From NCBI GenBank assembly GCA_045863295.1, contig BTWA01000003.1, forward strand, positions 160,001 through 224,000: a DNA stretch of 64,000 nucleotides, given 5' to 3'. This document shows, one piece after another, positions 42,649 through 64,000 of the stretch. Positions within the stretch are counted from its first letter, which is position 1. Each line of letters opens with the position of its first letter. The stretch is from Candidatus Hydrogenedentota bacterium (lineage in GTDB: Bacteria; Hydrogenedentota; Hydrogenedentia; Hydrogenedentales; SLHB01). The notes beneath the pieces were generated by a model that made no database searches, had not been told where the DNA came from, and saw only the letters and a list, made by a program, of their open reading frames with translations. The translations under genes were made by a program, and so were the position numbers.

Positions 42649-42872
42649 AACGGACTTATTGCCAACTCTGAATGCCGCTCGTCGCCTACGACAGGCATCT
42701 CGTCCGCCTATTTCGATTCGCTCCGATTGCCCACAGATCCACAGATTCAATCGAATCCTTTTGTGAAATATCCTCAGCGATTCAAGCCCAGACTTTTCTG
42801 CGTGAGCATCTTGCACCACGGAGACTGTACTTCAGTCTTCCACGCACGCTAAAAGCGCGATGTAAAATGCGG

Positions 42873-43018
42873 GTCATCCCCGCGAAGGCGGGGATCCATC
42901 TTCCAATGTCGCAAGTAGCTTTGCACTCACATGGATTCCCGCCTGCGCGGGAATGACGAGTTCGGTGCCCGCCTGCAAGGGAATGACGAATTCGGTGCCC
43001 GCCTGCGCGTGAATGACG
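42873..43018. repeat. REP doublet plus tandem 30-bp copies (GTCATCCCCGCGAAGGCGGGGATCCA family)
   Basis: 42873-42898 is inverted to TGGATTCCCGCCTGCGCGGGAATGAC (42932-42957); two more CCCGCCTGC..GAATGACG units at 30-bp period. Confidence 0.88.
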
Positions 43019-43129
43019 GAATGCGTGTACCGCACCGCAAATTTCGCTATGATTCTCCTCTCTGAGTGTTGGGCCGGGTTGCGCTTGGCTCCAATGCCTG
43101 CATGCAACGGAAACAGGAGTCTTCGCATC

Positions 43130-55419: not shown

Positions 55420-55635
55420 TGGACTGCTGAAGCTTGCTTCAGCCTTGCCTGAGGGAGCTTGCTCCCGCGCGCATACCAAATACCGCACGTCAGAAAGGCC
55501 CCAAGCCGACAGTGCGCACACGCGTCGACCGACGCTGTAACCCACAGCCCAAGGCGTGCACGGAATGCGACGCCAGCAAGCTGGCTTATCCAAAGCGGAA
55601 GCAAGCTTCCGCACTCCACGGAGCTTGCTCCCGCG
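55420..55635. repeat. REP cluster with AGC(TT/AA)GCT-core palindromes
   Basis: GCTGAAGCTTGCTTCAGC, GGGAGCTTGCTCCC, GCCAGCAAGCTGGC, GCGGAAGCAAGCTTCCGCACTCCA, GGAGCTTGCTCC. Confidence 0.82.
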
Positions 55636-61399: not shown

Positions 61400-61619
61400 C
61401 AGAGCGCGACCGCGAGCCAACCACGGCGGCAAGACCGTGACCTCCCATCGCCCCGATTTCGGCGCGGTGAAAACAGAATCCTCGCCCCGAGGAGGTCTGG
61501 TTCACCGCAAACTGAGCAACCTTATCAATTATACCCATTTTCCACCCGAAATGCGCAATATATGAGCAATGCAGAAACAAAATTCTGCAAACCATTGAAT
61601 TTAAACCGGTTACAAACAA

Positions 61620-61647
61620 GGCGGGCCATCGCACGCGATGGCCCGCC
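61620..61647 (-). terminator. Rho-independent terminator after Gfo/Idh/MocA gene
   Basis: GGCGGGCCATC..GATGGCCCGCC stem followed by TTGTTTGT on the minus strand. Confidence 0.75.
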
Positions 61648-61679
61648 CAAAGATATCAACAGCAGATTGTTGACAAAAA

Positions 61680-62822
61680 CTACGCGTGAACCTTCTCCCA
61701 AGACCCCGTTTCAGCGGACTTCAACACCGCGTCGCACACATACTGCGTCTCCAACGCATCCCGGAACGTGGGAGACGTGGATTGACCCTTCGCGGCGTTC
61801 TCCAGAAAGTCCGCCACCTGATGCACAAAGGTATGTTCGTAACCGATTTGCAGCCCCGGTACCCACCACTTTCCCATATACGGGTGATCGCCATCGGTGA
61901 TGTGAATGGACCGCCAACCGCGGACCTTGGACTCGTCCCGGTGGTCGAACCAATTGAGCCGGTGCAGGTCGTGCAGGTCCCATTGAATGGAAGCATGTTC
62001 GCCGTTGATCTCGAACGTGTACAGCGCCTTGTGTCCCCGCGCATAGCGCGTCGATTCAAAGGTCGCCAACGAACCGTTCTTGAAGTGAGCCAGAAACGCG
62101 CATGCATCGTCGATCTTGACGGCCTGGCTTTTGCCGGTCGCGGTGTGAACCCGTTCCTTGATAAACGTTTCCGTCATGGCCGTCACGTCCGCCATGGATC
62201 CGTTCAGCCAGAGGGCCGTGTCGATGCAGTGCGCCAGCAAGTCGCCGGTTACGCCGCTGCCCGCGGCCGCCGCATCCAGACGCCACAGGCCTTGGCCGCC
62301 TTGCGGCAACTCGGCGGAAATGGTCCAGTCCTGCAGGAACACCGCGCGGTAGTGGAAGATGCGGCCAAGCCGGCCCTCGTCGATGAGTTGCTTGGCCATG
62401 GTGACAGCCGGTACGCGGCGGTAGTTGTACCACACCGTGTTGAGCACCCCGGCCTTCTCCACGGCGGCGCACATTGCCTCGCCTTCGGCAGCGTTCATGG
62501 CGAGCGGCTTTTCGCACAGGATCATCTTGCCCGCTTCGGCGGCGGCAATGGCAATTTCCTTGTGCAAGTTGTTGGGCACGCAGATATCAACCGCATCGAT
62601 ATCCTTGCGCGCAATCAATTTGCGCCAGTCGGTTTCCGTGGTTTCATAGCCCCACGTATCCGCGAATGCCTTGAGTTGTTCTTCATTGCGCGCGCAAGCC
62701 GCTTTCAAGACCGGCTGGTATTCCAGGTCAAAAAAGTTGCTCACCTTTCGAAAGCCGTTCGAATGCGCCCGGCCCATGAAGCCGTAGCCAATCATGCCGA
62801 TATTCAATTTCTTCTTCGCCAT
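61680..62822 (-). CDS. Gfo/Idh/MocA family oxidoreductase
   Basis: [30 protein letters not shown]. Confidence 0.93.
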
Positions 62823-62835
62823 ATCCCCTCCTTAG

Positions 62836-63326
62836 TTAACCGCAGATGTCGCAGATGAGCGCAGATATCCGGATCAGTAATTCAGTACGACCCGCTTGAA
62901 CTCAAGACGATCCTTTCCAAAATTCAATATTAGGCCTCGCCTCAAGCCGGTCGATCGCAGGTAGTTGATCACTTGCGCCATATGCTCAGGCAGAATTGCC
63001 TTGCAGACTTTGAGTTCAACTACGACCGCTTCAAAACAGACAAAATCTGCTACATAGTGTTTCTTTAGAGGAACACCTTTGTATTGCAGGCGAATCTCAT
63101 TTTCGCGCAAATACGGAATGCCTTGCATCGTCAACTCGATTTCGAAGCACTCCTGATACACTGGCTCCAGAAATCCCATCCCCTTTTCGTTGTGGACTTC
63201 CATCCCCGCGCCTATGAGCCGGTGCGTTTCTGGATCTCGTTCATCGTCCACTTGGCAATCTCCCCATGCCACGAAAAGTATTTTTGGTTTCCTTCATCTG
63301 CGTCCATCTGCGACATCTGCGGCTAA
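62836..63326. mobile_element. Candidate inverted-repeat-bounded GxxExxY cassette
   Basis: 31-bp inverted repeats at 62836-62866 and 63296-63326 (28/31 match) enclosing one ORF. Confidence 0.55.
62874..63251 (-). CDS. GxxExxY protein (PD-(D/E)XK nuclease-like)
   Basis: GFLEPVY (GxxExxY), ADF..VVVELK, AQVINYL, GLILNFG; GGGGAG RBS before GTG. Confidence 0.92.
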   Translation of the reverse strand: MDDERDPETHRLIGAGMEVHNEKGMGFLEPVYQECFEIELTMQGIPYLRENEIRLQYKGVPLKKHYVADFVCFEAVVVELKVCKAILPEHMAQVINYLRSTGLRRGLILNFGKDRLEFKRVVLNY

Positions 63327-63336
63327 GCTTGATTTT

Positions 63337-64000
63337 CTACCAGCCGTGGGCGTTGCGGACTTTCACCATGACGCCCAGGATATCGTTCCAAGTTTGCTGT
63401 TTCATCATGGTTGCGTTGGGGAACATGCAGCCGTCCCAGCAAATGTGCTGGAAAGCCTTGGTCGGTTGACCGTCCGCGCCGCGCATCCAGAAGCCCGCGT
63501 GTTTCACGATGTCGAGTTTGCCGTTGGGATCGTTGGGCAGGCAGTGCCGGCCCGTCTTGTCGTGCGATCCCGACCCGAACACGGTTGCGTCGTTTTGCGC
63601 GATGTGGAAATCGATGGTCCACGGCCGCAACGCATCCGTGAGCGTTTTCAACGCGGCATCGAGCACGCCTTGATCTTTCCAGTCGTATCCCGCAGGCAGG
63701 ATGGCGTCTTTCTCCGCGTTGGCACCCAGCGTGTAGAGCAGCGTATGCGCCATATCGGCCTGGAACCCCAACGTCTTGGGCCGATCCACCAACTCAAGAA
63801 GCTTGATCATCTCCTTCCACGAATGCATGCCGCCCCAACAAATCTCGCCTTCCGCGGCCAGCCGCTCGCCATAGCCTTCGGCCACGTCGCACGCTTCGCG
63901 GAACGTGTTGGCGATCGTGCGCGTGCCTTCCGCCGGGTTCGCATCCCAGTCACCCACGCCACAGGCGGAGTCGATGCGGATCACGCCGTAGGGACGCGCG
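63337..64000 (-). CDS. Sugar-phosphate isomerase/epimerase TIM-barrel protein (5' end outside window)
   Basis: [36 protein letters not shown]. Confidence 0.8.

Follow-up and report, generated by a model that had tools for sequence, protein, structure and literature searches.

The GxxExxY gene described here and the inverted repeats (arms) that enclose it are best interpreted as a cognate nuclease-repeat system, a reading to which we give a probability of about 0.55. An inverted arm pair was found between the own flanks of 130 of 161 GxxExxY genes, compared with 33 of 1000 non-cognate flank pairs and 1 of 500 random sites. Each of nine or more arm types stays with a single protein clade across phyla, and gene-less arms are abundant. 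The stretch of DNA analysed, 64,000 nucleotides of a contig from a Candidatus Hydrogenedentota bacterium and referred to as the window, carries one such gene between a TIM-barrel gene and a Gfo/Idh/MocA oxidoreductase gene (Table 1).

The element and its protein

An earlier note on this DNA had described inverted repeats of 31 bp around the GxxExxY gene, matching at 28 of 31 positions and holding three units each. This was borne out, with CGCAGAT as the unit, as were the gap of 10 nt to the TIM-barrel stop codon, the 2 nt to the ribosome-binding site AAGGAGGGG and the residual junction of 23 nt. The arms (62836-62866 and 63296-63326) are separated by 429 nt and are present in exactly two copies in the 6.3-Mb genome when searched at up to three mismatches. 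Inside one arm the units form a direct triplet, and an inverted pair of 12 nt or more is absent. On the transcript-sense strand the two arms are predicted to pair into a single long stem (z -5.8, equalled by none of 100 shuffles), and two of their three mismatches are G-U on that strand. The impression that the ORF is more AT-rich than its neighbours also held, the GC content being 48.5% for the element, 59.1% for the Gfo gene and 61.7% for the TIM-barrel gene. Rfam gave no match at gathering level.

Table 1. Positions of the element and of neighbouring features in the window
Feature	Position	Strand	Remarks
5' arm (gene sense)	63296..63326	-	outer leader and three CGCAGAT units; starts 10 nt past the TIM-barrel stop
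Probable Shine-Dalgarno GGGGAG of the GxxExxY gene	63260..63265	-	inferred from spacing and homologue starts
GxxExxY / PDDEXK_3 nuclease gene	62874..63251	-	125 aa from GTG 63251
Longest GxxExxY frame	from 63272	-	132 aa; residue numbering follows these 132 aa
3' arm	62836..62866	+	inverted copy of the 5' arm; stops 2 nt short of the Gfo ribosome-binding site
Gfo/Idh/MocA ribosome-binding site AAGGAGGGG (host)	62825..62833	-	
Gfo/Idh/MocA oxidoreductase, downstream host gene	61680..62822	-	380 aa
Xylose-isomerase-like TIM barrel, upstream host gene	63337..64000	-	348 aa; extends past the window
Terminator-like hairpin 3' of Gfo	61619..61648	-	

A search of 61400-64000 gave no promoter-like site, and the nuclease gene therefore likely rides on the operon transcript. 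Translation likely starts at GTG 63251 rather than at the longest frame, since the probable Shine-Dalgarno sequence lies 8 nt upstream and homologues start at the equivalent position. As the window copy is promoterless, co-oriented with the operon and placed between a stop codon and a ribosome-binding site, the host genes stay whole.

Other repeats were observed elsewhere in the window. Positions 42870-43020 hold a cluster of GTCATCCCCGCG...GGGAATGAC-type palindromic repeats, which we take to resemble the repeat class tied to GIY-YIG/Ssn genes, and a two-unit CACAGAT remnant lies at position 42732. A second intergenic inverted repeat of the AGCAAGCT type (55420-55463 and 55575-55618; 44 nt, 80%) was also seen, and other contigs of the genome show related motifs next to solo arms.

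In two profile searches (Pfam PF13366 and NCBIfam TIGR04256) the ORF scored above cut-off, with 128 bits against 22 and 134 against 35. PF13366 was the sole Pfam match of the window protein, GIY-YIG cd10448 being absent, and domain searches of the element found neither an HUH-Y1 domain nor an encoded transposase. In an alignment of 39 rows, nine residues do not vary (G33, E36, Y39, D76, E86, K88, Q100, Y104, and F118). None of the cysteines is invariant or near-invariant, in contrast to the four conserved Fe-S cysteines of Cas4. The catalytic-type residues E36, D76, E86, K88, Q100, and Y104 are intact in the window protein, and 144 of the 161 genes keep all six and have no stop. They form the core pattern E-D-ExK-QxxxY, in which QxxxY is a signature of RecB/Cas4-type nucleases that act on single strands. 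The predicted structure is confident (pLDDT 92), and its top fold match was Cas4 SSO0001 (Foldseek E 9e-5), which aligned over 100 residues with Z 8.5 and rmsd 3.4; the BpuSI nuclease domain tied with it, and lambda-type exonucleases and MGME1 followed. On this model the protein has both the fold and the catalytic E, D, and ExK residues of the PD-(D/E)XK superfamily; the Z values speak for the fold, not for a function. A sequence search of the Protein Data Bank returned T7 endonuclease I alone (E 1.4), which was not counted as evidence.

All 16 pairs compared had a dN/dS of 0.17 or lower, same-site orthologues included, with dS saturated in four of them. By this measure the catalytic-type residues are under purifying selection, and the selection on the gene is similar to that on the flanking host genes. 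For resident copies this suggests partial domestication, as proposed for the Ssn and RAYT enzymes discussed below. An attempt to read replacement from the synonymous divergence of gene versus flank was dropped, the value for the gene lying below that of the flanks in some pairs and above it in others.

Arms and protein clades across the family

TIGR04256 gave 266 matches in 55 of 61 related genomes. The 161 genes comprised 30 loci from these matches, 100 regions among the best 150 listed matches, 34 further loci from named phyla, and loci at Gfo junctions, after removal of 16 rows (six short, four at contig edges, four duplicates, and two without the motif); the set is biased toward intact genes. 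No scoring arm pair was present at 31 genes. Among loci of other phyla, including Bacteroidota, Planctomycetota, Acidobacteriota, and Nitrospirota, 26 of 30 scored, two of these with short palindromes and not triplets. Strict triplets were found close to 112 of the 161 genes, on both sides in 69, and close to 1 of 30 Y1 transposases. All three GxxExxY genes of the window genome are armed, and the same genome holds five gene-less hairpins, two of them by other GxxExxY copies, as well as many solo arms. The co-location of triplet repeats with GxxExxY genes, which the earlier note had suggested testing, was thus found across the family.

Most copies have an enclosing arm order with defined outer ends. 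Direct arm copies are also present at 71 of the 161 genes, and the notion that arms always point inward was dropped because outward-facing and alternating arrays exist. Among 102 called cases (28 of the 130 elements were uncalled), the gene shares its orientation with the upstream gene in 92 and with the downstream gene in 82, figures for which the available control, 144 of 256, is poor. Forty-five of 88 arms begin within 11 nt of a stop codon, and in several elements (L295, L298, and L098) the upstream stop codon itself (TAA, TAG, or TGA) is supplied by the outer leader of the arm. A stop-codon-proximal effect on translation is known for REPs. There was no match in 50,697 phage records, 8 of 72,556 plasmid records matched, and no relative of the single protein searched was found in viral contigs. 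In the window genome, the copy on contig C8 and extra arms (L348, G000:C8:77500-81200) cluster with an HEPN_Swt1/DUF499 gene, possibly in a defence island, and the copy on contig C5 lies near DUF2283 and a Schlafen helicase.

Nine unit types were distinguished by analyst-defined patterns, with 28 of the 161 genes untyped. On protein trees built from 119 columns (quick and FastTree), arm type required 21 changes, compared with a mean of 85 and a minimum of 76 after shuffling, and the division between GAG/AAG units and all others required a single change. Host genome required 81 changes versus 80 when shuffled, and the copies of one genome do not cluster. Judged by these trees, arm type follows protein clade and not host genome. 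Mismatches between paired arms fell on 90 of 1645 unit positions and 136 of 363 spacer positions, with a period of 8-10 nt; the units being pattern-defined, this count is biased toward low unit mismatch. Such a concentration in the spacers is as expected of sequence read-out.

In the 61 genomes, triplet-pattern hits numbered 2873 versus 266 gene matches (rho 0.53, from kin genomes that are not independent and from hits that can overlap). The three arm-free genomes all lack the gene, and one genome (G029) has 54 arm hits and zero GxxExxY genes. High counts were seen in G051, with 377 triplet-pattern hits and 7 nuclease matches, and in G057, with 315 and 5. When gene-less arms were compared by type with the presence of the cognate clade, the association was not significant (p 0.19 and 0.13; 48 genomes, incomplete gene set), so linkage alone may explain the matching of clade and arm.

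History of the junction and spread of the element

GxxExxY lies immediately upstream of Gfo in 15 of 48 orthologous loci; a further 23 show a TIM gene upstream but no GxxExxY, and 10 were uncallable. Two distinct TIM genes occur upstream of Gfo. The sequence of the junction arms varies among genomes, and their complementarity is kept within each. Eight of nine junction proteins tested may share a single origin (AU p 0.48), and the ninth (L007) belongs to another clade and has another arm type (AU p 1.2e-5); a further junction protein (L267) also has its best match in the clade of L007. The Gfo junction, as read from these comparisons, has been occupied by two clades with different arms. Ten of 16 junction copies look intact, one of them cut by a contig end, and six are disrupted, whether through a frameshift, a stop, an altered catalytic residue, or decay; some of this may reflect assembly errors. 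One apparently empty junction (L265) is an eroded remnant in which the last codons and the 3' arm remain; none of 200 shuffles was as good when it was compared with three of four filled copies, and 10 of 200 were as good against the window copy. At another junction (G119) a single worn arm is left.

Several of the 23 GxxExxY-free junctions hold other inserts. In G034 the junction reads hairpin-gene-hairpin-arm and includes, between the element and Gfo, a membrane-protein cargo with a weak PMT_2 match (L099:2474-4711), and in L306 (G119) a membrane-protein gene with a likewise weak PMT_2 match lies between the remnant arm and Gfo, so that the junction also gathers cargo. It appears to be an insertion hotspot, with other inserts at L257, L259, L261, L010, L013, L019, L022, L028, and L030; the gaps are 339-1185 nt where measured, and some inserts look by eye like toxin-antitoxin remnants.

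The earlier note had read the element as a self-mobilising unit. Its core, a nuclease with cognate repeat ends in the manner of REP/RAYT, is upheld by the family-wide results, but a recent, precisely excisable insertion at this site is not. The site is common to several genera and families, and the 23-nt empty allele is absent from the TIM-Gfo junctions of relatives, with no precise empty allele in any of the 48 orthologous loci; loss proceeds by erosion. In three sludge DNA runs, contigs near-identical to the window span the element. No precise excision joint was listed in the contigs of four runs, where joints across the element belong to other organisms. Given the wide sharing of the site, the clade swap, the broken copies, and the eroded remnant, the window copy is an old, intact resident and not a fresh insertion.

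Empty sites were found for other copies, as orthologous junctions without arms. Two elements of G118 lie at junctions that are arm-free in four relatives, the window genome included, and in three, respectively. An element of G051 is common to two congeners and absent, together with its arms, from G110. For a third site of G118, the counterpart in G011 shows the same upstream gene followed by a gene-less hairpin and a different downstream gene. Close paralogues at unrelated junctions within one genome were found in G010 and G027. From these comparisons, whole units have been gained at arm-free junctions elsewhere. The flanks of one G118 element (L298) correspond to two separate places in G011 (L326 and L330), where the arms may mark a rearrangement breakpoint. 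The absence of a target-site duplication, remarked on for the window element, agrees with a survey of 81 elements that showed little excess over non-cognate flanks.

An expansion of a different kind was seen in G003, which has 41 matches, many of them in broken genes. Twelve near-full units of ~580 bp that include a GxxExxY element are 87-94% identical to the reference copy (e.g. L198:1375-1957); further unit loci are L199, L200, L203, and L205, and there are dozens of decaying copies. A 17-bp outer repeat occurs 41 times in G003 and not at all in its congener G031, and 4 of the 10 copies inspected showed a 6-of-6 duplication when offsets of one base were tolerated. This expansion looks like MITE hitchhiking, and it was set aside as proof of self-mobility on account of the separate outer repeats, the duplications, and the decayed genes.

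Proposed mechanism, rival readings, and related systems

In the preferred reading of a cognate nuclease-repeat system, the heptamer triplets of the arms are likely read by their cognate protein, a minimal nuclease predicted to be Cas4/RecB-like. The DNA would probably be single-stranded or extruded as a hairpin, and the enzyme would cleave it next to the triplets. Host repair would then likely spread the arms and, less often, copy or swap a whole arm-gene-arm unit at operon junctions, where old copies would decay and be replaced. No PD-(D/E)XK domain is known to perform strand transfer; insertion would hence need other enzymes. A bolder version of this proposal is that GxxExxY is a second, independently evolved nuclease family specific for its own repeats, with at least nine orthogonal specificities that can be read off the flanks, which drives its own unit into new junctions and over residents without a transposase as a minimal homing-like mobile element. 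We offer this version only tentatively.

The arms might instead be a MITE- or REP-like repeat moved in trans, with GxxExxY as a hitchhiking defence or repair nuclease whose function is unrelated to them. The G003 gene, inside a unit with outer repeats and duplications of its own, fits such a passenger, as do the other cargo at the Gfo junction, the neighbours of the C8 and C5 copies, the host-like selection, and weak PADLOC matches to Cas4 (13 of 39) and PDC-M36A (5 of 39; none for the window protein). However, each of the at least nine arm types stays with one clade across phyla, the obvious candidate for action in trans, Y1/RAYT, is not arm-associated, and ordinary copies have no target-site duplication, and we consider this explanation unlikely. 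At the other extreme, the nuclease alone could precisely excise and reinsert the arm-gene-arm unit as an autonomous, transposase-free transposon, which would account for the defined outer ends, the enclosing arm order, the gains at arm-free junctions, and the paralogues at unrelated sites. It would sit poorly with ordinary copies that lack a duplication, with the lack of a precise empty allele among the junctions compared, with loss by erosion, with same-genome copies that are unclustered on the tree, and with the near absence of matches from phage and plasmid records; we regard it as highly improbable.

A role at the RNA level, also raised in the earlier note, would have the arms pair into a stem in the mRNA and loop out the gene, as in an rRNA intervening sequence. 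RNase III or the protein itself would cut the stem, and the nuclease mRNA would thereby be released or the relative expression of the two flanking genes set. The strong predicted stem, the two G-U mismatches in the window, the co-orientation, and the arms close to stop codons are in its favour. Across 130 elements, however, there was no G-U strand bias (G-U versus A-C pairs on the sense strand, 111 versus 133 and 16 versus 21), which gives the intervening-sequence reading no support. A duplex is weakened by the 37% mismatch in the spacers, many arms stand alone or alternate in direction, and promoterless inserts in general would be expected to be co-oriented. Units that are conserved between spacers free to vary are a better fit to sequence read-out than to selection for an RNA duplex. 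From one RNA run came a single contig of 260 nt and depth 3 inside the gene, which may be DNA, and no same-strain contigs from the flanks. An RNA-level role is on balance improbable, and the nuclease-repeat reading is retained.

The homing endonuclease cycle and rRNA intervening sequences served as comparison systems. As in the former, intact, broken, eroded, and re-occupied states are found at one site, and as in the latter a stem-bounded ORF lies in a transcript. Unlike both, GxxExxY is not in an intron, intein, or rRNA and has no RNA-strand pairing bias, and the unit carries the conserved motif itself instead of lacking it. Terminal inverted repeats are shared with IS elements and MITEs, but there is neither a target-site duplication, the G003 composite excepted, nor an encoded transposase.

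Closer parallels are found in Ssn/SRM (NTS-ssnA-NTS), in which, according to the main text of Chenal et al. 2025 (PMC11893778), a small GIY-YIG (cd10448) nuclease with its own flanking repeats cuts cognate ssDNA. As described there, Ssn likewise has a small nuclease gene of one domain with its own repeat on the flanks, many gene-less repeat copies, nuclease-repeat pairs that vary by lineage, a wide, patchy distribution, and a proposed domestication; the flanking rates are 71% and 42% for Ssn (PMC11893778), to be set beside 112 and 69 of the 161 GxxExxY genes. The two differ in superfamily, GIY-YIG versus PD-(D/E)XK, and in the repeat, the SRM being a hairpin on its own of 20-50 nt, whereas the GxxExxY arm consists of three 7-mers in direct order and needs a second arm to pair with. 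A single arm thus forms no hairpin, unlike Ssn and REP targets. Cleavage by Ssn, which is site-specific and confined to ssDNA, has been demonstrated, whereas for GxxExxY it is predicted.

In the REPtron, RAYT/TnpA-REP with REP/REPIN/BIME, the accessible parts of PMC5581495, PMC8266576, PMC6006769, and PMC3733652 likewise describe cognate intergenic repeats that flank an enzyme gene and lie close to gene ends, pairs that co-evolve, arrays of alternating repeats, rarity on plasmids, and housekeeping-like selection. GxxExxY, in contrast, is without HUH/Y1, hence without known strand-transfer chemistry, and without a GTAG tag; its gene-bearing units appear at new sites, and several clades occur per genome. 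With the Cas4/RecB-family nucleases (SSO0001, lambda exonuclease, and MGME1; accessible part of PMC5704561) it shares the predicted fold and the E-D-ExK and QxxxY core, but it has ~125 aa, lacks conserved Fe-S cysteines, is not by CRISPR genes here, and is tied to triplet repeats. Ssn/SRM is the nearest described system, and GxxExxY would likely be an unrelated-superfamily counterpart of the Ssn repeat-specific ssDNases. Having neither GIY-YIG nor HUH, GxxExxY belongs to neither Ssn nor RAYT but plausibly works like both. The main text of PMC11893778 does not mention GxxExxY or PDDEXK, and no publication linking GxxExxY to repeats was found among the mostly open-access main texts searched, in which GxxExxY appears only as an annotation.

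PF13366 occurs in several other phyla as well as in 55 of the 61 related genomes, yet the accessible part of PMC3424549 gives it as 'function unknown', with multiple transfers. The flanks hand each GxxExxY protein a candidate substrate, which makes its function testable with oligonucleotides. If the proposal is true, systems made of a nuclease gene plus a cognate repeat would have arisen in three unrelated folds (HUH, GIY-YIG, and PD-(D/E)XK), a widespread, unannotated class of intergenic repeats would be explained, and the family would offer a panel of very small nucleases with differing specificities.
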